From a virus, in the IMG/VR virus record IMGVR_UViG_3300044961_000356: a stretch of DNA of 44,570 nucleotides; one strand, written 5' to 3'. Below are positions 6,166 through 24,211 of the stretch, in pieces. Every line of letters starts with the position of its first letter. Within the stretch, counting starts at the first letter, position 1. A program made the position numbers and the translations under genes. The notes under the pieces were generated by a model. That model made no database searches, was not told where the DNA came from, and saw only the letters and a list, made by a program, of their open reading frames with translations.

Positions 6166-6333
6166 GTCGGCGGAAATTTCACTCTTCCTCCCAAAAAACC
6201 AGCGCCAGTTCAAAAAGTTTATTCTCTTCAACACAGAAAACTTGGCGGTAAATCACTTAAAACAAAACGAATAAGATCTGAAACTCCTCGAGGTTTTGCA
6301 GAAGCTGTTTATCAAAAATATGGAGTCAATTAA
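6166..6333 (+). other. In-frame continuation (55 codons, no stop) of the methyltransferase reading frame after TGA 6163-6165
   Basis: Manual translation VGGNFTLPPKKPAPVQKVYSLQHRKLGGKSLKTKRIRSETPRGFAEAVYQKYGVN. It ends with TAA overlapping the helicase ATG (TAATG), as a full-length gene would. Confidence 0.6.
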
Positions 6334-8642
6334 TGCACAGCCTTACCCCTGAGCAAGCCGCAATCATTGAAGCAACCATACAAACCACAGATAATCTCAT
6401 TGTGAGCGCATTAGCCGGCGCAGCTAAAACTTCAACTCTCGTCATGCTTGCAAATGAACTGGCTAAAGTTAAGCCTGGTATGGAAATCCTCTGCCTTGCG
6501 TTCAACAAAAAAATAGCCATTGAAATGCAGAGCCGCCTTCCCTCAACCTGCCGCGCTATGACGCTTAATTCCCTCGGCTACCGAACTTGGGCATCTGCAC
6601 TTGGTAAATCTCGCCTCAAAGTCAACTTCAAGAAAAACTACGAGATCATGCAGGCGGTGATCGAAGAGCAAACCAAGAGCGACCAGAGAGAACTTTACCC
6701 CCGCATGACAGAACTCATGCGCATTGTTTCGTTCGGCAAAGCTTGCGGTTATATTCCATCTGGCGAGTGGGAAAATCGCGCTAAACGCCTTATGGACGAC
6801 TCAGAATTTTTTGCTCACATCGACCAAAAGCTTTCTTCTCTAGAGCAATCCATCATTCGGGAATGCAGCATCCGAAGCATCAAACTCGCTTTAAAAGGTG
6901 AGTGCGATTTTGACGATCAAATCCTGATGCCCACCTTGTTCGGCGGCAGCTTTCCTCTTTACAAGCTGACACTTGTAGACGAAGCTCAAGATCTGTCCGC
7001 ACTAAACCACGAAATGCTCCGAAAAATCTGCGGCAGTCGTAGACTAATTGCTGTAGGCGATCAATGCCAACCAGCCGGGACAAAAGTTACTGTTGTGGAC
7101 AGGCCTGGTGATCGTTGGAACGCGCCTAAGCTGCGTCAAGTTAATATCGAAGACCTTCAGGTAGGAGATAAACTGCTTGGCTATACCGGCGAAGGCTCCT
7201 TCACGTTCAACAGAACTGTCGAAGGCATTAGCCAGAATTACTACGAAGGCGAGCTTACGATAGTTGAAGTAGCTGGTAACACTTCCATCTATACAGAAAA
7301 CCATCACTGCTATGCATCCTTTGAGCCTTTTCGAGAACACTTCGCACTCTACCTCATGCGTAAAGGAAAATACTTTCGCCTCGGGCGCTGTAAGATGAAT
7401 TACGAATGTGGCGCCGGGCCAACGCGAAGAGCAATTGCAGAAGGCGCAGACGCTTACTGGCTTCTCGGCGTTTATCCAACAGAGCGCGAGTGTGCGATCG
7501 AAGAAGCGGTAGCGCAGGTGCAGTTCGGTTTGCCTGACATTACTTTCGTATGCCCCAACACCAACAGTGGCTTTGCGACCCAAAAGTTTCTCGATGAGGC
7601 GTGGGCATATATTTCTGCGTCAGTGGATCTCGAAGAGCGAGCGCATCAATGCCTTTCCTACTATAAGCGAATACCTGACTATCCCATCTGGAAGAAAGGC
7701 GCAGCGGCCAAGTTCAGTCTGCTTCGTCCGTCAATTGTTCATGCTTGCAATTTGATTACAGGTTGCCTCATGCTTCCTTACCGTGGACGGAGTAAAATCT
7801 TTGCCGAGCAATGGACGCCAGCAAACATAACGCGACAATGGGTCAAAGATCTCCCAGTCTATTCACTTACTGTAAGCCACAACAACCTTTACGTGGCTGA
7901 CAACATCGTTACGCACAACTGCCAGGCTATCTACGGTTTTCGAGGTGCGCATGAAAATGGCATGGAAGAACTGAAGCATAAGTTTTCCATGCGAGAACTT
8001 CATTTAACTACCAGTTTTCGATGTGCCAAAGAAGTTGTGAAAGCAGCTCAATGGCGAGCTCCCCTTATGCGCGCTCCAGAGTGGGCGGATGAAGGAAGTG
8101 TCACCACTCTTAATGCATGGCGGGCATCTGACTTGGCTGAAGACGCAGCAATTATTTGCCGCAATAACGCTCCGCTTTTTAGTCTCGCAATAAAGCTGTT
8201 AAAAGTCGGTCGCCCAGCAGAACTCGGCGGTAAAGATGTAATTCAACTGATCACTAAAATCATGGCAAAGTTTGGCGATCACAAAATGAAGCGGCAAGAG
8301 GTGCTCGACAACATTAACGCTTGGCTTGCGAAAGAAAAGTCTAAGACAAAAGAGCGCGCTCATGCAGCCCTGGAGGACCGCGCTAAGTGCATGGAAATCT
8401 TTGCGTTGCAAGGAGAAACTTTGGGCGATGCTTTGCACTACGCAAATCACAGTGCTGAGTTACATAGCCCCCTGAAACTTCTTACTGGCCACAAGTCTAA
8501 AGGTTTGGAGTTTGAAAACGTCTACTTTCTCGACGAACACCTAATCGGTCAAGAGGAGCAAGAGCCGAATATTCGCTATGTCATTATCACTCGTGCCAGG
8601 CGCAATCTTACCTACATCCAATCCGAAGGATATCGGGTTTGA
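6333..8642 (+). CDS. SF1 UvrD/PcrA-like DNA helicase precursor (769 aa) containing an intein
   Basis: Walker A AGAAKTS, motif II LVDEAQD, motif III split (VGDQ / CQAIYGFRGA), TSFRC, GHKSKGLEFENV, VIITRARRNL. Confidence 0.85.
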   Translation: MHSLTPEQAAIIEATIQTTDNLIVSALAGAAKTSTLVMLANELAKVKPGMEILCLAFNKKIAIEMQSRLPSTCRAMTLNSLGYRTWASALGKSRLKVNFKKNYEIMQAVIEEQTKSDQRELYPRMTELMRIVSFGKACGYIPSGEWENRAKRLMDDSEFFAHIDQKLSSLEQSIIRECSIRSIKLALKGECDFDDQILMPTLFGGSFPLYKLTLVDEAQDLSALNHEMLRKICGSRRLIAVGDQCQPAGTKVTVVDRPGDRWNAPKLRQVNIEDLQVGDKLLGYTGEGSFTFNRTVEGISQNYYEGELTIVEVAGNTSIYTENHHCYASFEPFREHFALYLMRKGKYFRLGRCKMNYECGAGPTRRAIAEGADAYWLLGVYPTERECAIEEAVAQVQFGLPDITFVCPNTNSGFATQKFLDEAWAYISASVDLEERAHQCLSYYKRIPDYPIWKKGAAAKFSLLRPSIVHACNLITGCLMLPYRGRSKIFAEQWTPANITRQWVKDLPVYSLTVSHNNLYVADNIVTHNCQAIYGFRGAHENGMEELKHKFSMRELHLTTSFRCAKEVVKAAQWRAPLMRAPEWADEGSVTTLNAWRASDLAEDAAIICRNNAPLFSLAIKLLKVGRPAELGGKDVIQLITKIMAKFGDHKMKRQEVLDNINAWLAKEKSKTKERAHAALEDRAKCMEIFALQGETLGDALHYANHSAELHSPLKLLTGHKSKGLEFENVYFLDEHLIGQEEQEPNIRYVIITRARRNLTYIQSEGYRV
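7065..7919 (+). mobile_element. Intein (285 aa) inserted in helicase motif III
   Basis: It starts CQPAGTKVTV (Cys1), has TENH (TxxH) at intein residues 77-80, and ends IVTHN followed by Cys+1. Excision restores VGDQCQAIYGFRGA. Confidence 0.8.
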
Positions 8643-12663: not shown

Positions 12664-12843
12664 ATGCCTACACTTGTTTTCACAAAACATGGCTGGCTTA
12701 CTAGCACTTCTCAATACAGCACCGACCGTAAACAGGCTCGTGTATTCGAGTTTCCTCAAGCTGTTGAGGCCTGCACTCGTCTCTACTCTAACGGAGTGAT
12801 TGCAGTTCCTGTTCGTATTACTGATTTAGGGTATATGAAATGA
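12664..12843 (+). CDS. Hypothetical protein (59 aa)
   Basis: Internal ATG of track ORF 12634..12843, downstream of the terminator. The stop overlaps the next ATG. Confidence 0.5.
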   Translation: MPTLVFTKHGWLTSTSQYSTDRKQARVFEFPQAVEACTRLYSNGVIAVPVRITDLGYMK

Positions 12844-14141
12844 CCAGCGCCCGGTTTACAGCATATCCAATTGCTTCAATATTCATTGATCGTGAAGCTC
12901 GTCAGCGAAAAAAGCTTGCTAATATAGACGAGCTCGCAGACAGCATTGCTCGCCTGGGCTTAATCAACCCAATCGTTATTGACGAGAACGGAACTCTTGT
13001 TGCAGGAGAGCGCCGCCTCACCGCTTGTATTCAACTCGGCTGGGATAATATCCCTGTTCAATTTGCAGAAGACCTTGATGAATACACTCTTCAGTGCATC
13101 GAGTTCGAAGAAAACGTAAAGCGTAGTGACCTCGAATGGCAAGAAGAAGTAGCTGCAGTAGCGAGGCTTCACGCGCTAAAAGTAGCAAACGAACCTGACT
13201 GGTCAATTGAAGATACCGCTGACTTGATTGGCAGTAGTAGAAACTATGTTGGCCAACGAATAGCTGTCGCTAAAGCTCTTGATAATCCTACAGTAGCTAA
13301 AGCAGACACATTTAGCACTGCACTCAACATAACCAAGCGCGATGCTGAGCGGAAAAAATCCAACATATTAGACACCATTTCTGGCAGTCTTCCGGGCATC
13401 ACTCAAAATCAACCTACCGATGAAGAATTGGAAAACTGGGATAAGCCACGTCCGGAAAAAATAATCCCTCTAATCAATGAAAGCTTCATTGACTGGCAAG
13501 CAAGTTACAGCGGAACCAAGTTCAACTTAATCCATTGCGACTTTCCTTACGGCATTAACGTAGCAAATGCTCCACGAATGAAAGCTGCAATTACAGATTA
13601 TTACGAGGATAGTCCTGATATATATTGGACGCTCGTTGCTACATTGGCTGGCGCAATGGAGAATGTAGTTGCAGAAAGTGCGCATTTGATTTTTTGGTTC
13701 AGTCCAAAATACTACGCAGACACAAAAGAGTCTTTGCAGCGCATGGGATGGAAAATTGCGGACTACCCGCTTATTTGGCATAAGAGCGATAACACAGGTG
13801 TAGCTCCTGATCCTCAACGTGGCCCTCGCCAAACTTACGAGATGGCGTTTTTCGGTGTGCGCGGTGACAGAAAACTAACTGCAACAGGCACAAAAGCAAA
13901 TAGCTTTGCTCATCCAGGTAAACGCACTGATGCCATCCATGTAAGCGAAAAACCTTGCGCTATGCTCCGACATTTTCTCTCAATGGTTTGTGACGATTAC
14001 AGCTATGTGCTCGATCCAACTTGCGGAAGCGGCAATGCGATTAAAGTAGCCCAGGACCTCGGCGCAAGTAAAGTTCTGGGAATTGAGCAGTTACCTGAAT
14101 TTTACCAAATTGCTTGCGACAACTGGGACCGTCGGACATGA
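12840..14141 (+). CDS. ParB-like nuclease domain fused to an N6-adenine/N4-cytosine DNA methyltransferase (beta class)
   Basis: N-terminal ParB-like segment LGLINPIVIDENGTLVAGERRL, motif IV IHCDFPYG (DPPY-like), and motif I VLDPTCGSGN placed after motif IV. Confidence 0.85.
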   Translation: MTSARFTAYPIASIFIDREARQRKKLANIDELADSIARLGLINPIVIDENGTLVAGERRLTACIQLGWDNIPVQFAEDLDEYTLQCIEFEENVKRSDLEWQEEVAAVARLHALKVANEPDWSIEDTADLIGSSRNYVGQRIAVAKALDNPTVAKADTFSTALNITKRDAERKKSNILDTISGSLPGITQNQPTDEELENWDKPRPEKIIPLINESFIDWQASYSGTKFNLIHCDFPYGINVANAPRMKAAITDYYEDSPDIYWTLVATLAGAMENVVAESAHLIFWFSPKYYADTKESLQRMGWKIADYPLIWHKSDNTGVAPDPQRGPRQTYEMAFFGVRGDRKLTATGTKANSFAHPGKRTDAIHVSEKPCAMLRHFLSMVCDDYSYVLDPTCGSGNAIKVAQDLGASKVLGIEQLPEFYQIACDNWDRRT

Positions 14142-14323
14142 GCACTTATCCAAAGATGCTTGCTGATCGTTTCACTTTGCAGGCAAAAGCGGCGAATATT
14201 TCGCCTCATCGCTTATTGCTTGACGAGTTCACCAGTCTACAGCAAGCCTATTTCGCTGCGTTGAAACTTTTGCTTGAGGAAAAGCCGAATGAAGATTGCA
14301 ATAGTCGGCGAAGCTCCAAGTGA
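14138..14323 (+). CDS. Possible small protein (61 aa)
   Basis: ATGA overlap with the methyltransferase stop; overlaps the next gene by 35 nt. Confidence 0.35.
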   Translation: MSTYPKMLADRFTLQAKAANISPHRLLLDEFTSLQQAYFAALKLLLEEKPNEDCNSRRSSK

Positions 14324-15269
14324 CCAAGACATTGAAGAAGGCCAATTGTTTACTGGAGCAATCGGCTGGCATCTTGACCAAATGCTTAGTGCTGCCGGCA
14401 TTAATCGTCGTGAGTGCCTAGTTACCAGTGTATTCAATCAACGCTTAATTCGCGGAGACGTTAAGAATTTTTGTGGCCCGAAAGGAGAAGCGGCAGAAGG
14501 TTTACCTCCAATATCACGAGGAAAATATCTTCGGCGAGAATATGCCGGAGAAATATCTCGACTACGAGATGAAATTAATTCTGCCGCTCCGAACCTTATT
14601 CTCGCTCTAGGCTCCACTGCTTTATGGGCTTTCAGCGGTGAAATTGGGATACGACAATACCGAGGCGTCACTCGCCTCAGCACCTGCGGAAAAAAACTTC
14701 TTCCAACCTATCACCCAGCCGCAGTTCTGCGTGAGTGGTCGCTTCGTCCAATCGTCATCGCAGATTTTCATAAAGCCGCGGCGCAAGCTGAGTCTCCAGA
14801 CTACAACCCACCTCGGCGACGAATTCATATAGAGCCGACTATTCGCGATTTGCTTTTATTCGAGGAGAAATATTTTGCCAGTGCCGTCAAACTTGCCTGT
14901 GATATTGAAACGAAACAAGAGCAAATTACTTGCATCGGTTTCGCGCCTAACGCTGAAAACGCAATTGTCATTCCATTCTTTCACCATTCCGGCAAGAATT
15001 ACTGGTCGTCAAAGGAAGAAGAGCTCGAAGCCTGGAAGATAATTCGTCGATGGCTCGCCACTTACCCGACTGTGTTCCAAAATGGCATATACGATATGAG
15101 TTTTCTATGGCGAGTTTATGGTATTCCAGCTCCACGTGCGTGTGATGATACAATGCTTTTACATCATGCGCTTCAGCCTGAGCTGAACAAAGGCCTAGGT
15201 TTTCTAGCATCTCTTTACACTGATGAACCCTCATGGAAACAAATGGGCAAAGGACAAAAGCATGATTGA
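14289..15269 (+). CDS. DNA polymerase fragment 1: UDG-family-4-like domain plus the N-terminal part of the 3'-5' exonuclease domain (ExoI, ExoII)
   Basis: VGEAPSDQDIEEGQLFTGAIG and TYHPAAVLR (UDG family 4 motifs A/B). ACDIET (ExoI) and FQNGIYDMSFL (ExoII). GAGGA lies before ATG 14289. Confidence 0.8.
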   Translation: MKIAIVGEAPSDQDIEEGQLFTGAIGWHLDQMLSAAGINRRECLVTSVFNQRLIRGDVKNFCGPKGEAAEGLPPISRGKYLRREYAGEISRLRDEINSAAPNLILALGSTALWAFSGEIGIRQYRGVTRLSTCGKKLLPTYHPAAVLREWSLRPIVIADFHKAAAQAESPDYNPPRRRIHIEPTIRDLLLFEEKYFASAVKLACDIETKQEQITCIGFAPNAENAIVIPFFHHSGKNYWSSKEEELEAWKIIRRWLATYPTVFQNGIYDMSFLWRVYGIPAPRACDDTMLLHHALQPELNKGLGFLASLYTDEPSWKQMGKGQKHD

Positions 15270-15618
15270 TCTTTTTGACAAAGAGCGTAAGTCAGGCCGT
15301 TGGACTGGCTATGACTTTATTGCGCAAGAGGCAAAGCAATTTAAACGTTTACAGCATTTGTCAGATCATGACGTAGCTTTTCGAATGGCTGTTGACCTAA
15401 ATACAGTTCGTAAAATGCGAGCGGCACGAAACCAAATTAATCGTCCGCTTTACAATACAGGGATTGACTACGGGGTGCGGGTTCTGCTCGGCAAACATAA
15501 TATCACAACAACAGGTGAATTGTTCGCCCTATCCGACGATGACATCCTCGCTATTCCCAAGATCGGCAAAGCTCGGCTTGAGCATATTCGTGAAAAGTTG
15601 CGGGAGTTTTTCTCATGA
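15262..15618 (+). CDS. Helix-hairpin-helix protein (RpoA alpha-CTD-like C-terminus), inserted between the polymerase fragments
   Basis: TTGELFALSDDDILAIPKIGKARLEHIREKL. ATG 15262 overlaps the end of fragment 1. Confidence 0.6.
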   Translation: MIDLFDKERKSGRWTGYDFIAQEAKQFKRLQHLSDHDVAFRMAVDLNTVRKMRAARNQINRPLYNTGIDYGVRVLLGKHNITTTGELFALSDDDILAIPKIGKARLEHIREKLREFFS

Positions 15619-15953
15619 TCTATCTTGCCAGCCCTTATACCTCAGACAGTCCTACTACTATGGAGCGCCGATTTCGCCAAGCTGCGGCAGCAACAGCTGC
15701 ACTTATCAATCGAGGCAAGATAATTTACTCCCCTATCTTGCATTTTCATCCGCTCGCAGAACTTTACGACTTGCCAAAAAACTTTGATTTTTGGCGGGAA
15801 GTAAACCTTAATATGCTTTCTCTCGCATCTGAACTTTGGGTGTTAACAATTGAGGGCTGGCGTGAGTCTCACGGTGTGCAAGCAGAAATTGCTTTTGCTC
15901 ATGAACGCAGTATTCCTGTTAACTACATAAGCAGTGAAATCTGGAAAATCTAA
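15615..15953 (+). CDS. DUF1937-like protein (nucleoside 2-deoxyribosyltransferase-like fold family)
   Basis: MIYLASPYTS...IYSPILHFHP...ELWVLTIEGWRESHGVQAEIAFA matches my recollection of the DUF1937 signature. ATGA and TAATG overlaps on both sides. Confidence 0.65.
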   Translation: MIYLASPYTSDSPTTMERRFRQAAAATAALINRGKIIYSPILHFHPLAELYDLPKNFDFWREVNLNMLSLASELWVLTIEGWRESHGVQAEIAFAHERSIPVNYISSEIWKI

Positions 15954-17557
15954 TGCGAGTTATCGACACAATCGAAAGCGATCTTTCAGTCCTTAACGAG
16001 GACGAAAACTATTGGGTTTATAATGGACTTGACAACTGCCTTACGCATGAAATTGACAGCGTGTTGCAAGGGCAGCTTGATGATGTAAGTCGTAATATAT
16101 ACAATCTGTCTCTTGCTTTGCAGGCTCCGGTCCTTGAAATGAACCTGCGCGGTTTACTCGTTAACCAGCGTCGTAAGTATGCTATCGTCAAAGAGTTTGA
16201 AGCGCAGGTCGCTCGTATAGAAGAGCAATTTTATCGCATTGTGCATGAAGGAGTGGGCATGACTCACTTCGACAATTGGCGTTCGCCTACACAAACTAAA
16301 GAGTTGTTTTATGATGTGCTCGATCTTCCTGTGCAAAAGAAGCGAAACGCTAACGGAATATTTATGCCGACTACAGACGAGCAGGCGTTGGAGCGTCTGT
16401 CTATGTATTTCCTCGGCGAGCCTCTAGCAAATCATTTACTCGCATTGCGGGGACTCGGCAAAATGCTTGGTTTTCTTCGAACCAAGATTGACAATGACGG
16501 AAGAATGCGCACGCAGTTTAATATTGCGGGCACCAACACCGGTCGTTTTGCCTCGAGCGAAACAGATTTTGGCACAGGCACAAACTTACAAAATGTAACA
16601 TCTTCTTTGCGGAGCGTATTTATTGCAGACCCTGGCCGCATTCTTTGTAATATTGACTTAGAACAAGCCGACAGCCGAAACATGGGCGCACTGGCTTGGG
16701 AAAAACTTTACGATGCTGATGCGAGTCGTATTACTGATTTACTTGCTCGTCGAGCAAAAAACATTCCACACTGGAACCCTTCGCTTCCTTGGCGCGGTCC
16801 AGTTGGGCCTGAGTTTGCAGGCGCTTATTTAGACGCCTGCGAGTCAGGTGACCTCCACACTACTGTAACTAAGATGGCACAGCCAGATTTGCCCTGGGGT
16901 AGAGGCCAAACTGATCGTGAAGTAGCCGATAAGTTAGCCTTTAAAAATAAATCTCACCGAGATTTATCAAAGGGTATTGGTCACGGCAGCAATTACATGG
17001 GAACCCCACCCACTATTGCTAAACAATCTCGTTTACCAACCGCGCTGGTTAAAGAGTTTCAAGTCAAGTATTTCAACGCATTTCCTTGCATCCCTGCAGT
17101 TCAGCAAATTATCATTGACGAATTGAAGCAGTCAAGTTGCTTAACCACTCCACTTGGTCGCCGTCGATTTTTCTTTGATCGACCTGAAGCTGGCGCTACC
17201 CAACGAGAAGGTGTTGCGTATATGGGGCAGTCTATGACAGCCGATGAATTAAACTACGGCTTGCTTCGTCTCTGGCGCACAGGACTTGTTGAACTTCTTG
17301 TTCAGGTTCATGACAGTATCCTCTTCCAGTTTGACGAACGTCGGATTAATGAAATTTTGCCTGTTGCGTTAGAGGCTTTATCGACCAAAATGACGTTGCG
17401 CGGAGGTCGGATTTTCACTGTCGGCACAGAAGCAATGCTTGGCTGGAATTGGGGATATTATTCGGAGGACAATCCTGACGGACTTCGCAAATGGAAAGGA
17501 GTTGAAACACGTAAGCGCCAAGAAAAATCTTTCAAACTCAGCGTTCAGGATTTGTGA
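15953..17557 (+). CDS. DNA polymerase fragment 2: ExoIII-like motif plus the family-A polymerase domain
   Basis: YNGLDNCL (YxxxD), TGRFASSE...NLQNV, motif A IDLEQADSR, motif B RDLSKGIGHGSNYMG, motif C VQVHDSILF. Confidence 0.9.
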   Translation: MRVIDTIESDLSVLNEDENYWVYNGLDNCLTHEIDSVLQGQLDDVSRNIYNLSLALQAPVLEMNLRGLLVNQRRKYAIVKEFEAQVARIEEQFYRIVHEGVGMTHFDNWRSPTQTKELFYDVLDLPVQKKRNANGIFMPTTDEQALERLSMYFLGEPLANHLLALRGLGKMLGFLRTKIDNDGRMRTQFNIAGTNTGRFASSETDFGTGTNLQNVTSSLRSVFIADPGRILCNIDLEQADSRNMGALAWEKLYDADASRITDLLARRAKNIPHWNPSLPWRGPVGPEFAGAYLDACESGDLHTTVTKMAQPDLPWGRGQTDREVADKLAFKNKSHRDLSKGIGHGSNYMGTPPTIAKQSRLPTALVKEFQVKYFNAFPCIPAVQQIIIDELKQSSCLTTPLGRRRFFFDRPEAGATQREGVAYMGQSMTADELNYGLLRLWRTGLVELLVQVHDSILFQFDERRINEILPVALEALSTKMTLRGGRIFTVGTEAMLGWNWGYYSEDNPDGLRKWKGVETRKRQEKSFKLSVQDL

Positions 17558-20471: not shown

Positions 20472-23400
20472 CTACGGCTGAACGTCCATCAGGATCAGTT
20501 CATCCAGATTGGTTATGAACATGAACACGCGGTTCACCCCTGTCAGGCTGCGCCGAAGAACAAGTGCTCCGTTGCCATTGAGGCCTACCCATCTGTGCTC
20601 GTTTCCGCTGTAGCGTGGCTTCCATGAAGTCCCTTTGATCTTGGCTGTCTCAAGCAACGTCTCCGGCACGAACCGCTCAAACCTGCGAACCGCAATGGTG
20701 TCGCCTACCAGAACCGTCGCCGGGTTCACCGTGACAATGAAGTCCGGGTCGCGCTGCCACTGCATCAGCCAATCGACCAGCGGCTTGAACCGCAAGCCGG
20801 TCTGGATGCTTTCGCGCCACAGCTTGTTCCCGGGGATGCCGGTCAGAGCCTCAAAGTAGGGCGTGAACGGCCCTTCGAGTTCCTTGAGCGGGTCGATCAG
20901 GCTTTGATCGAAATGCCCAGTCGTGGGGTCGAGATACTCCTCTTTGATGCAGTGCGTCGCGCTGGGAACGCCGGGGTAGTTGGTAACGACCCCTGCCGTA
21001 ATGCCATTCGCTCCGATGTTGTTGTGCGCCCCGGTCAGGGTCCCGCCGCCGATTATCTCGATCTTGTTCGAGATATTCTCTTCACCTGCCCGCGTAGGGA
21101 GCCAGACGTTATTCAGGGTCAGGCTCATCTGCGGAACGTCTACGGAGACCAGCCCCATGACCTGATCGGACTTGTTCGCCAGCAGCCGCTTGAAGTGGTG
21201 AGGGATGGCGGCATAGTTCGTCACGCTGAACATCGTCGGCGCACCAGGGTTGGTGCTGCTCTTGGCCAGCAACTGGTTGCGGAAGCTGCTCATGTGAACG
21301 TGGTTCTCGACTGTCACATTGCCGAAAACTCCGGTGTTCATCTGGAGAAAGACCGGCTGGGTCGGCGAGACGCTGATCCACGACCCGATATAGGTGTTTG
21401 GCAGGTTCACATCCGCAAGGTTTGTTTGAATGCCGTCATGGTGCGTGGCGATGTTGTAAATCGCTGGGCCGCTTCCGTTCGACCAGACGTTGTTCGTCCA
21501 AGTGCCGTAGCGGCAGTAGAGGCGCACCCAAGGTGTCGTAGGGGAGGGCGCAAACTTTTGGGCGATGACAAAAACATCGCCGTCATCCGGAGCGGCTTCG
21601 AGAGTGCCATTCCCAATCAGCATACCATTATAGGCGAACTGGAAATTGGGCCTGTTCTGATTGGCGTTCCCGAAAAACTGCGAGTAGTGGGCGACCATGA
21701 TCCGGCGACCCCGGATAGCCGCTGCCTCGTTCAGCGTGTTGGTGGTGTAATCGTAGACCCCAGCGTGATAAGCCCACAGGCCGCGAGGAAGATCGGCCGC
21801 CGCACTAAGGCCCGCCGCAGTGACGTTCTGCCAGATCGGGCGATTATTGCTGTCCACACTCACCGCGACTTCGATCTCCTTGGTGCTCTGCATCAGGTCC
21901 AGCCTCATGCCGGTTGAGCGCCCAAGGAATACGTTGTTCGTTGAGTAGGTGATCGTTCCGCCGTGCAGGTAAGTGGCATCATTCCATACGCGGTCGAGAT
22001 AGAAGTTTTCTTGGCTCCAGGTGAATGTCCTGCCGGACGGGCCGTTCGGGCTGAGGCCGCGAGGGACCATCTGGCAGGACGAATTATCGACGTTCACGCT
22101 GGAGCCGTTTGGCGCCTCATTCATGTTGATCGTCAGGTAGCCCTGAAAGATCGAGAGCGTCAGGTCGTCCATGTCATCCTGAACCGTGACATTGCGCCGG
22201 TTCCGGGTATGCGTCGGGATCGTGCCAAGCTGGATCGAATGATTGAAGTTGAAGTTCCCTGCCGGGCGCAGCGTATGGGTGTTGCTTGTCCCAAGCTGCG
22301 TCTGCGAAACAAGTTCGCCCTCGTTGCTGCTCAAGGGAAAGATGCAGATGTAATCCATCTTGGTCAGGCCGGTCAGGTTGGTCTGACCAGTCTGCGCTCC
22401 TACAGCATTGAGCAAGCGGCTGATCCAGCCATAAAGCCGAACGTCGTTCTTGAATGCGGAAGTGAGCGTGAAATTGTGCAGGTTCGGGCGAAACCAGCCG
22501 CCAGACGTTGAAGGCAGGCACTCCTGCGTGAAGCGCCCCGGCCCCAAATTCAGCGTATAGTCGTCCACCCGGTTCGAGTTGGCGGCCGTCTGCGGCCCGA
22601 AGTCGTAGCGGTCAGTGCTATTCGGAAGGATGCCATAGGTATCCGTCGTCTCATTGGACGCCACAATCTCGATGCAAGGCACTAGCGGAAACCAGTCGCC
22701 CCCGCTCATGTAGCGGCTGTTGAGCAGCGCCAGCTTGCCATCTGTGATTGCCGTCCGACAGCGAGCGACACCGTGAAACAGCGCACCGATCTTTCCGTCA
22801 ATGTCGGTGTTGATCGTCTCGGCAACAAAGTCCTTGTAGTAAGGCGCGCTCCCGGTTGTCGGGGTGATAAGCTGCGGAGTGCCCGAAGGCGGTGCTTCCA
22901 GATTGTTGCCCGCCGTCCAGTCGTGGATCATCATTTGGACGCCGACTGGGACATTGGCGAGGTTCACGAGAGGAAAGAAGTTTGTCGAGGCTGCAATGCC
23001 GTCGAACTGCGCCCACACCAGCCAAACATCGTTCCCCGCGCTGTCCTGATAGGGCATTTTGGAGACGCCGGTAACGTATTGGCGAGTGGCGTTGATGGCC
23101 GAGGAAATGGTAATCTCACCAGCCGCGTCCACGGCAAAAGACACGCTGCTGGAAGCCCAACCAATTGAGAAGCTCCACGTTGACCCTTTGACAGGCAAGG
23201 AGATAAGCATACTGGTGCGGCACCGATTGCCGAGCGCCGGATTGGCAAAGCCGATGTTATCGGCCCTGATAACGGTGTTAGTCGGGGTGTTCTGGAGGCT
23301 AGTCAGCAGCACGCCCTTCCCGGTGCCGCCGTGAATGTCGGGGCCGCTGTGCTCGCCAGCGTAAGCGCGAGAAATCCAGGACGGTCCATTGTTGAACAGA

Positions 23401-23852
23401 TATGCTGCGTCGGTGTTTGCATGAGGCGCGTCGGTCTTGTGCCACGGCGCGCCGTATATCCGGCGGGCTGGTTCCATGAGCGCACCCGCGTAGACACCAT
23501 TTTGATCGTGAAAGGAGCGCTCTGTATTTCCTGCAATTTGGGACCACGCGCCATTACGACCTCGCTCCCATGCTCCCTCTGTGCTTGTCCAAGTCGCGTG
23601 AGCAGGCAAGTCAATTTTGTCATCAGATGAAAGCAGCTTAAGTAAAACTTTGGTTCCTACTAAAGCTTGTGCTTCAGCTCTAGCCGCCTCGGCTCGGTCC
23701 GCTTCCGCCTGAGCCAAAGCCACTTGTGCCGCACCATTAGCAGTAGCATCACTTGCAGCTTGTTCAGCCGCATCCACAAGAACCTGGACTGCCGCGACAG
23801 TTTCGTCTCGAAGTTCATTTCTCAAGCGCGTAGCAAAAAGAGGAATTGTCAT
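20472..23852 (-). CDS. Large tail fibre / tail spike protein (1126 aa)
   Basis: Track ORF 20472..23870. ATG 23852 overlaps the upstream stop (TAATG). Ala-rich coiled N-terminus, and the last and largest virion gene. GC is about 60% over 20472-23600. Confidence 0.7.
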   Translation of the reverse strand: MTIPLFATRLRNELRDETVAAVQVLVDAAEQAASDATANGAAQVALAQAEADRAEAARAEAQALVGTKVLLKLLSSDDKIDLPAHATWTSTEGAWERGRNGAWSQIAGNTERSFHDQNGVYAGALMEPARRIYGAPWHKTDAPHANTDAAYLFNNGPSWISRAYAGEHSGPDIHGGTGKGVLLTSLQNTPTNTVIRADNIGFANPALGNRCRTSMLISLPVKGSTWSFSIGWASSSVSFAVDAAGEITISSAINATRQYVTGVSKMPYQDSAGNDVWLVWAQFDGIAASTNFFPLVNLANVPVGVQMMIHDWTAGNNLEAPPSGTPQLITPTTGSAPYYKDFVAETINTDIDGKIGALFHGVARCRTAITDGKLALLNSRYMSGGDWFPLVPCIEIVASNETTDTYGILPNSTDRYDFGPQTAANSNRVDDYTLNLGPGRFTQECLPSTSGGWFRPNLHNFTLTSAFKNDVRLYGWISRLLNAVGAQTGQTNLTGLTKMDYICIFPLSSNEGELVSQTQLGTSNTHTLRPAGNFNFNHSIQLGTIPTHTRNRRNVTVQDDMDDLTLSIFQGYLTINMNEAPNGSSVNVDNSSCQMVPRGLSPNGPSGRTFTWSQENFYLDRVWNDATYLHGGTITYSTNNVFLGRSTGMRLDLMQSTKEIEVAVSVDSNNRPIWQNVTAAGLSAAADLPRGLWAYHAGVYDYTTNTLNEAAAIRGRRIMVAHYSQFFGNANQNRPNFQFAYNGMLIGNGTLEAAPDDGDVFVIAQKFAPSPTTPWVRLYCRYGTWTNNVWSNGSGPAIYNIATHHDGIQTNLADVNLPNTYIGSWISVSPTQPVFLQMNTGVFGNVTVENHVHMSSFRNQLLAKSSTNPGAPTMFSVTNYAAIPHHFKRLLANKSDQVMGLVSVDVPQMSLTLNNVWLPTRAGEENISNKIEIIGGGTLTGAHNNIGANGITAGVVTNYPGVPSATHCIKEEYLDPTTGHFDQSLIDPLKELEGPFTPYFEALTGIPGNKLWRESIQTGLRFKPLVDWLMQWQRDPDFIVTVNPATVLVGDTIAVRRFERFVPETLLETAKIKGTSWKPRYSGNEHRWVGLNGNGALVLRRSLTGVNRVFMFITNLDELILMDVQP

Positions 23853-24211
23853 TACAGAACCTCGTTCCAAATAAGTGTGATAGTTATTTCTTTTACGGCA
23901 GTTGCGTTTGTTGCGTCAGTAACAGTAACTCTCCACACGGCAATTTCTGGAGCAAGCTCATTTACAATAGCACTCCAAGTCGGATTAGCTATTCCAGTAA
24001 ATGTAGGTTCAACAATCATTGATCCGCTTACATAAGCCCAGTTGTAAGTGAACGGAGAAGTTCCTCCAATTGGTGTAGTATTTGGAAGTTGAGTAGTAGT
24101 TACTAAACCACTACTGCTGCGTCCAAATTGAGCTCGAGTAACATCATTCGCCAGAACAGAAAATTCTGAAGAAGATACCGTTCCTACAAGAGCAGTTAAA
24201 ATTCCACTCAT
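23852..24211 (-). CDS. Hypothetical tail-fibre-associated protein (119 aa)
   Basis: ORF track; coupled on both sides between the two fibre genes. Confidence 0.55.
   Translation of the reverse strand: MSGILTALVGTVSSSEFSVLANDVTRAQFGRSSSGLVTTTQLPNTTPIGGTSPFTYNWAYVSGSMIVEPTFTGIANPTWSAIVNELAPEIAVWRVTVTDATNATAVKEITITLIWNEVL

Follow-up and report, generated by a model that had tools for sequence, protein, structure and literature searches.

The window analysed here, a 44,570-nucleotide stretch of tailed-phage DNA (IMG/VR virus record IMGVR_UViG_3300044961_000356), encodes a 769-residue UvrD-like superfamily 1 (SF1) helicase whose motif III is split by a 285-residue insert at positions 7065–7919. 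By every feature that the sequence and the predicted fold can show, the insert is a canonical class-1 intein, because both of its outer lobes have matches among solved inteins and Hint domains. Between these lobes lies a central domain of ~135 residues, which is the most conserved part of a very large intein family and which we infer to be a homing endonuclease from its conservation, the spread of the family over several sites and host genes, and its free-standing derivatives. That the intein is genuine and apparently intact, and that splicing is part of its mechanism, is close to certain. The whole reading, that is, a functional class-1 intein of the SPO1 gp34.33 family whose central domain is a homing endonuclease, we regard as likely.

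The insert lies in frame between the Gln and the Cys of helicase motif III (VGDQ↓CQAIYGFRGA, in which the arrow marks the junction). It begins at residue 245 with CQPAGTKV and ends with ...NIVTHN↓C, and CQAIYGFRGA follows from residue 530. The matches of the helicase to the Pfam families UvrD-helicase and AAA_19 end at residue 246, exactly where the insert begins; the GC content does not set the insert apart from its surroundings. Removal of the insert leaves a 484-residue protein that reads ...LIAVGDQCQAIYGFRGA..., in which the motif is restored as VGDQCQAIYGFRGA. The residues of class-1 splicing are all in place: (i) Cys1; (ii) a block-B TxxH motif (TENH, intein residues 77–80); (iii) a terminal His-Asn; and (iv) a Cys at position +1. 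Thus, the intein described in the initial annotation of this DNA was borne out in its boundaries, its splicing residues, and its restored motif, far beyond what chance would give. The hexamer TGCCA(A/G), noted there at both junctions, does recur, because Cys-Gln is encoded at both places. The further suggestion that the repeat is consistent with a homing site did not hold: the CQP start of the family is kept at every insertion site, even where the +1 residue is Ser, so that the repeat is uninformative on homing and is not a target-site duplication.

The family of the intein was collected with three inteins as seeds of an exhaustive profile search; the alignment and the site counts given below cover 139 full-length copies from the top 150 proteins, and a 46-sequence subset, A2, was used for profiles and modelling. 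Across the 139 relatives, Cys1, His80, and Asn285 are conserved in 100%, Thr77 in 97%, and His284 in 91%. The Hint domain that the first reading of the sequence implied was recovered by profile search and by structure prediction of residues 245–529. The NCBIfam model TIGR01443 (intein C-terminal splicing region) scored 20.7 bits on the window intein, above its cut-off of 15.6, and Pfam Intein_splicing was matched by 45 of the 46 members of A2 (best E 2e-10), some of which also match Hint, Hint_2, or Hom_end_hint. When the A2 profile was compared with solved inteins, both lobes matched (residues 19–87 and 250–285), with the Mja KlbA intein (2jmz, E 1.3e-8) followed by BIL2 and then by the DnaX mini-intein. 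The AlphaFold (AF2) model built from A2 has a predicted local distance difference test score (pLDDT) of 95.9 and a predicted template modelling (TM) score of 0.90. A model from only 3 sequences was poor (pLDDT 63), and a fold search with it was meaningless. Searched against the PDB with Foldseek, the whole-intein model from A2 returned only Hint-fold proteins as its top matches, namely the BIL2 domain (6tmm, E 1e-5) and further the Prp8, DnaB, gp41-1, and RecA inteins and the hedgehog autoprocessing domain, with target-side TM-scores of 0.6–0.78.

Most close relatives of the helicase lack the insert. At E ≤ 1e-10, 4,057 proteins are related to the helicase in its spliced form, and among the best 120, 115 are uninterrupted proteins of ~485 residues with a seamless motif III. 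In 27 of these the site reads AVGDQCQAIYGFRGA, the exact predicted splice product, which is the empty site that the initial annotation had anticipated; others read GDPCQ or GDPNQ. Only 5 of the 120 carry the insert (P0155, which is the window's own protein, P0167, P0168, P0179, and P0272), and the three closest helicases (76–81% identity) do not; the figure for the exteins of the carriers is 65–72%. Empty alleles were also read at the DNA level: one intein-less site is ...GTAGGCGATCAG↓TGCCAAGCCATCTATGGC..., and the intein-less P0157 gene reads ...GTAGGCGATCAG↓TGCCAAGCCATCTATGGCTTCCGA... at the same place. Comparison of the carriers revealed that their inteins are 72–85% identical and their exteins 61–76%. 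Non-synonymous divergence is 0.08–0.17 in all three parts of the intein versus 0.20–0.28 in the exteins, with synonymous sites saturated; the intein is therefore more constrained than its host gene. The figure for the central domain, 0.11–0.14, is about half that of the helicase. The intein is thus patchily distributed, and its transfer is not recent.

Clustered at 50% identity, the family comprises 1,965 representative proteins at E ≤ 1e-3 and still 746 at E ≤ 1e-30; a word-indexed protein search found only 3 matches each for the intein and for the central domain. Half of the full-length copies (70 of 139) occupy the site used in the window, GDx↓CQxIY, and another 53 lie two residues downstream, at GDxxQ↓(S/C)IY. 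The remainder are located after GDxxQxIY (4 copies), in motif II (DExQD↓ or DE↓xQD, 3 copies), or elsewhere (9 copies). Several proteins hold two copies, and copy length stays within 269–316 residues (median 286). A Foldseek search of viral models found the whole architecture in a Siphoviridae helicase (query-side TM-score 0.87) and in a Myoviridae methyltransferase (0.82). The latter kind of host is also seen in Streptococcus suis prophages, whose adenine methyltransferases carry the same element at QHEP↓C...THN↓CLFGWK. In Streptococcus phage phi-SsuJS7 (MN270270.1; locus L133, 1501–2355), the intein in the adenine-specific DNA methyltransferase is 27% identical to that of the window over its full length, with junctions ...QWQHEP↓CQPAGT...GIVTHN↓CLFGWK, and the intein annotation is missing in about 15 S. 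suis prophage records. A divergent, unannotated member of ~370 residues sits in the 924-residue "DNA helicase" of the cultured Escherichia phage muut (NC_052657.1, YP_009985785; locus L132, 1700–4474), with junctions GDEFQ↓CVSEN...ILSHN↓CIYQFRGS; about 25 Escherichia phage records give the same partial match. The family thus occupies at least six insertion sites and at least two host genes that are unrelated to each other, a spread that demands repeated mobility. Separately, the 467-residue metagenomic helicase fragment P0003 appears to hold two inteins, the first ending ...YIVTHN↓TTTIVG in what we read as the Walker-A region and the second being a member of this family at GDSCQ↓CQPAGT...VTHN↓SIFGFKGG.

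Most of the invariant columns of the family fall in the central domain. Tyr96, Arg105, and Gly107 are conserved in 100% of the 139 relatives, Trp132, Leu134, and Glu147 in 99%, Glu126 in 97%, Met98 in 95%, and Arg122 in 90%; the invariant columns include no conserved His/Cys metal-binding set. In the AF2 model, where the domain has a pLDDT above 90, strands 93–100 and 103–110, helix 118–125, strand 130–137, and helix 140–154 form a β-β-α-β-α core, which is followed by two helices (residues 173–186 and 189–199). The initial annotation had allowed for a degenerate nuclease module in this segment; instead, it is the part of the family under the strictest conservation, with a non-synonymous divergence below that of the helicase. 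Its report of no LAGLIDADG or HNH motif stands, since the LAGLIDADG_1, LAGLIDADG_2, LAGLIDADG_3, Hom_end, and HNH models matched neither the window intein nor 46–48 relatives at E values up to 1–10. Foldseek with the whole-intein model was dominated by the Hint matches, and the fold of the central domain was not identified by it. As a candidate for a hidden endonuclease gene, we also considered an antisense open reading frame (ORF) of 179 residues (7044–7583, minus strand). Its open stretch falls from 185 to 123 to 37 codons in related inteins; it is therefore not conserved, which leaves no endonuclease gene in an alternative frame, and the ORF is probably spurious.

A resemblance of the central segment to a GIY-YIG hairpin had been noticed at the outset. 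GIY-YIG nucleases carry the GIY and YIG motifs, then an Arg, and then a Glu, on three strands flanked by helices (PMC1564403). The central domain is similar to such nucleases (I-TevI, UvrC, Hpy188I, UPF0213/YhbQ) in the order of its secondary structure and conserved residues: it has a Tyr on strand 1, x-I/V-G on strand 2, an Arg on the next helix, and a Glu on the helix after strand 3, with Tyr96, Arg122, and Glu147 on the expected elements and Gly107 invariant. It differs in that the position of the YIG Tyr is taken by the invariant Arg105, and in that sequence and profile comparisons revealed no significant similarity. A GIY-YIG domain would have ~100 residues with a β-β-α-β-α core, an order of elements that the model of the central domain fits. 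Lys73 of Hpy188I is a precedent for a basic residue in place of that Tyr (PMC3045582). Among 48 central-domain members and their consensus, no match to the Pfam families of the GIY-YIG clan was found. For hhalign, alignments of I-TevI-like and UPF0213 proteins were built from fetched loci; comparison with 25 I-TevI-like sequences gave a probability of 0.2%, and comparison with UPF0213/YhbQ gave the expected register (Tyr to Tyr, Gly to Gly, Glu to Glu) with P values of 0.005–0.07 and probabilities of 1–7%, below significance. A motif scan of the first 50 kb of phage T5 for a T5orf172-type sequence found nothing. Thus, the resemblance holds in layout and not in any significant match, and a GIY-YIG assignment of the central domain is possible but doubtful. 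GIY-YIG domains have been reported as not known inside inteins (PMC1564403; PMC2677866).

Two free-standing ORFs, independent of each other, each contain both the Hint and the central domain, and suggest that the central domain has a function of its own. On a JGI contig that is also present in an ENA sample (locus L134, 71–2462), an uninterrupted 490-residue UvrD-like helicase with the motif III VGDKSQCIYTFTG is followed by a hairpin plus T-run and then by a 272-residue ORF that aligns with the whole intein, in which Cys1 is changed to Ser, Thr77 to Leu, His284 to Asn, and Asn285 to Gly. At locus L136 (685–3228), an intein-like ORF of 296 residues, with upstream stops in all frames, precedes an uninterrupted 531-residue helicase (VGDDFQSIYGFTG); here His80 is changed to Thr, His284 to Leu, and Asn285 to Ser. 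Both ORFs retain Tyr96, Met98, Arg105, Gly107, Arg122, Glu126, Asp129, Trp132, Leu134, Glu147, Pro157, and Asn229. The loss of splicing residues together with the retention of the central-domain invariants points to a selected function of this domain that is independent of splicing, which the sequences suggest is probably that of a homing endonuclease. Free-standing homing endonuclease genes adjoin the type of gene that they target, and the arrangement at these two loci can be likened to the yeast HO gene and the seg and mob genes of phage T4.

Two other candidates for free-standing central domains were rejected. Protein P0152 proved to be a broken relic (locus L001, 2611–3915) with a stop inside: an unrelated N-terminus (MNYYIFHHNDLDG...), which may resemble a DHH phosphoesterase, is joined to the middle of an intein, and after the stop come a C-terminal intein piece and the C-terminal part of a helicase (ACN...ITHN↓CIFTFSG). 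The relic protein recurs on 5 contigs, which come from at least 4 sequencing runs. A central-domain-only match in phage phiBsKO1-1 was found to be a frameshifted SPO1-type intein.

The residues and the fold suggest the following splicing route. In the 769-residue precursor, Cys245 would undergo an N–S acyl shift, and the thioester would then pass to Cys530; Asn529 would cyclize, aided by His528, and an S–N shift would follow. The route would end with a 484-residue helicase, its motif III whole, and the released 285-residue intein. The central domain, which splits the Hint domain, would act as a homing endonuclease that cleaves, close to the motif-III codons, the intein-less helicase alleles of relatives infecting the same cell; repair by recombination would then copy the intein into the cut allele. 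Several observations weigh against parts of this scheme. Taken singly, the window intein scores 15.2 bits (E 0.019) with Pfam Intein_splicing, whose gathering score is 35.8, and N-terminal intein models do not match it; the block-F position, often Asp, is Ser267 in the window intein, and Ser in 99% of the family. No nuclease family related to the central domain was found by sequence: Pfam, PHROGs, and NCBIfam searched with 48 members, Pfam searched with the consensus, and all PDB sequences searched with the profile gave chance-level matches only; within the reach of HMMER, this excludes the LAGLIDADG, HNH, VSR-like, and endonuclease-VII families. Relatedness among the carriers is old (57–78% nucleotide identity), and neither a recent transfer nor a co-conversion tract around the junctions was seen among them, so that the higher identity of their inteins could reflect constraint and not mobility. 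The searchable literature yielded no experimental data on any member of the family.

Part of this evidence also favours an alternative in which the intein splices but its central domain is not a nuclease, having instead a DNA-binding, regulatory, or structural role, while the element persists by vertical descent or moves with the help of a nuclease encoded elsewhere. The mismatch in sequence to nuclease models and solved nucleases, the non-significant hhalign results against GIY-YIG families, and the lack of visible recent transfer among carriers all agree with it. Nevertheless, we consider it unlikely, given that the invariant Tyr, the two Arg residues, and the Glu resemble an active site more than a scaffold, that the number of sites and host genes calls for repeated mobility, and that free-standing copies beside intact helicases keep the domain and lose the splicing residues, a pattern typical of free-standing homing endonuclease genes. 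A decaying element, in which a non-functional endonuclease remnant marks the passage of a former large intein to a mini-intein, would explain why 285 residues is less than the typical length of LAGLIDADG inteins and why model searches found no known endonuclease motif. This reading is already contradicted by the conservation data, and we judge it very improbable: the length of the family is tightly held, the central domain contains most of the invariant columns and diverges at non-synonymous sites about half as fast as the helicase, and AlphaFold folds it with high confidence. The reading of the insert as an accessory domain that stays in the helicase for good has a single point in its favour, namely that splicing is deduced here and does not come from experiment. 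It is scarcely credible for an insert that splits the invariant motif III, that has a Hint fold and all four splicing residues, that is dispensable with a seamless motif in 115 of the 120 closest homologues, and that recurs in a methyltransferase. A functional class-1 intein with a putative homing endonuclease as its central domain is the reading that we adopt for the features in Table 1.

Table 1. Helicase precursor gene and intein parts in the window.
Feature	Position	Strand	Remarks
Precursor ORF, 769-aa UvrD-like SF1 helicase with intein	6333..8642	+	Stop codon included
N-extein, helicase residues 1–244	6333..7064	+	Walker A region, motif II LVDEAQD, first half of motif III ...VGDQ
Intein, class-1 type, 285 aa	7065..7919	+	Helicase residues 245–529
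Hint N-terminal lobe, intein residues 1–87	7065..7325	+	Cys1 7065–7067, block-B TENH 7293–7304; all-beta in model
Central domain, intein residues 88–222 (~135 aa)	7326..7730	+	Putative homing endonuclease
Conserved central-domain codons	Y96 7350–7352, R105 7377–7379, G107 7383–7385, R122 7428–7430, E126 7440–7442, E147 7503–7505	+	
Hint C-terminal lobe, intein residues 223–285	7731..7919	+	Blocks F/G ...PVYSLTVSHNNLYVADNIVTHN, His-Asn 7914–7919
C-extein, helicase residues 530–769	7920..8639	+	Starts with +1 Cys (7920–7922); CQAIYGFRGA is the second half of motif III

The host protein is an SF1 UvrD-like helicase according to its matches to Pfam UvrD-helicase (E 4e-16), AAA_19, and UvrD_C (residues 693–764) and to PHROG 1967, "DNA helicase" (E 4e-79). 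Public contigs, the longest of them 44,758 nt, encode an identical protein. The helicase gene had no nucleotide-level match by megablast among 50,697 phage records, and its relatives were reached by tblastn only. The window is a tailed-phage genome that encodes a terminase, portal/adaptor and tail proteins, a family-A DNA polymerase, a primase, an exonuclease, and methyltransferases; no second intein was found in it. The family-A DNA polymerase is spread over separate ORFs (14274–17557, plus strand), of which the first encodes UDG and 3'-5' exonuclease regions (14274–15269) and the last the polymerase domain (15953–17557), with two small ORFs between them, one similar to the RNA-polymerase alpha-CTD (15223–15618) and one with DUF1937 (15615–15953). 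Just upstream of the helicase, a 169-residue ORF (5656–6165, plus strand) matches only positions 15–163 of the 247-position profile of PHROG 757, a DNA methyltransferase, and has no Pfam match; it may be truncated or split. In a 433-residue protein (12840–14141, plus strand), the N-terminal region is ParB-like and DNA methyltransferase matches (PHROGs 498, 4715, and 67) also occur, and a 1,132-residue ORF (20472–23870, minus strand) has no Pfam or PHROG match at E ≤ 1e-3.

Helicase ATPase motifs are a well-known location of inteins, and the SPO1 relative has been annotated since 2009. The window intein itself is therefore not news; it is ordinary in kind and belongs to a family that is already annotated but uncharacterised. 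What deserves attention is its middle domain, which keeps a few invariant polar residues across roughly two thousand clusters, has no counterpart in Pfam, PHROGs, NCBIfam, or the PDB sequences, and recurs at neighbouring helicase sites, in a methyltransferase, in unannotated coliphage helicases, and in free-standing genes without splicing chemistry. Should it prove to be a nuclease, it would offer a compact sequence-specific endonuclease module that is open to characterisation and a natural case of traffic between inteins and free-standing genes, and phage annotation would improve, because many such helicases have been deposited without the intein being marked. If it is a GIY-YIG nuclease, it would be an in-frame GIY-YIG domain in an intein, a combination described as unknown in accessible sources. 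We tentatively raise the possibility that the central domain represents a homing-endonuclease family uncatalogued for inteins, either a minimal GIY-YIG with Arg in place of the YIG Tyr or a new nuclease fold, which would drive both a very large multi-site intein family and HO-like free-standing genes.

The closest known system is the intein in the UvrD-type helicase gp34.33 of Bacillus phage SPO1, a member of the same family with 30% identity over the full 285 residues (tblastn E 1e-24). The two share the CQPxG start, the pattern VYLM...FRVG...R...E...W.L...E in the central domain, and the VTHN end, and they occupy the same type of host protein, likewise in motif III. The SPO1 copy is located two residues downstream, at GDDDQ↓C...THN↓SMYSFRGA with Ser at +1, whereas the window copy is located at GDQ↓C...HN↓CQAIY with Cys at +1. 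The SPO1 protein is annotated as "apparent intein, 275 aa" in GenBank FJ230960 and is described, together with the likewise intein-containing CampHawk helicase, in PMC3868849; neither source names the nature of its central domain.

Large LAGLIDADG and HNH inteins, such as PI-SceI (VDE), are similar to the window intein in that the Hint domain is split by an inserted domain, that they are of class 1 with the same splicing residues, and that they lie in a conserved catalytic motif of an enzyme of DNA metabolism. The inserted domain of the window intein is only ~135 residues long with a β-β-α-β-α core, and Foldseek gave low target-side TM-scores, about 0.25, to PI-SceI-type chains. The intein nucleases in a 2025 survey are LAGLIDADG, HNH, VSR-like, and endonuclease-VII-like (10.1101/2025.01.02.630785). 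The actinobacteriophage inteins of that preprint by Gosselin et al. and the "fractured genes" of Dassa et al. (2009) are, like the present family, phage inteins beyond the in-frame LAGLIDADG type, and they also link free-standing endonuclease genes with inteins. Their modules are HNH, antisense LAGLIDADG, VSR-like, or endonuclease-VII-like and are often out of frame or between the halves of split inteins; by contrast, the central domain described here belongs to none of those types, and it is contiguous and in frame. Yeast HO and free-standing phage homing endonucleases of the T4 seg/mob type offer a further comparison: the ORFs at L134 and L136 encode intein-derived proteins without the splicing residues, and they stand beside an uninterrupted gene of the type that the intein normally invades. 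Yeast HO carries a LAGLIDADG domain, whereas these ORFs keep the uncatalogued central domain with its putative function.

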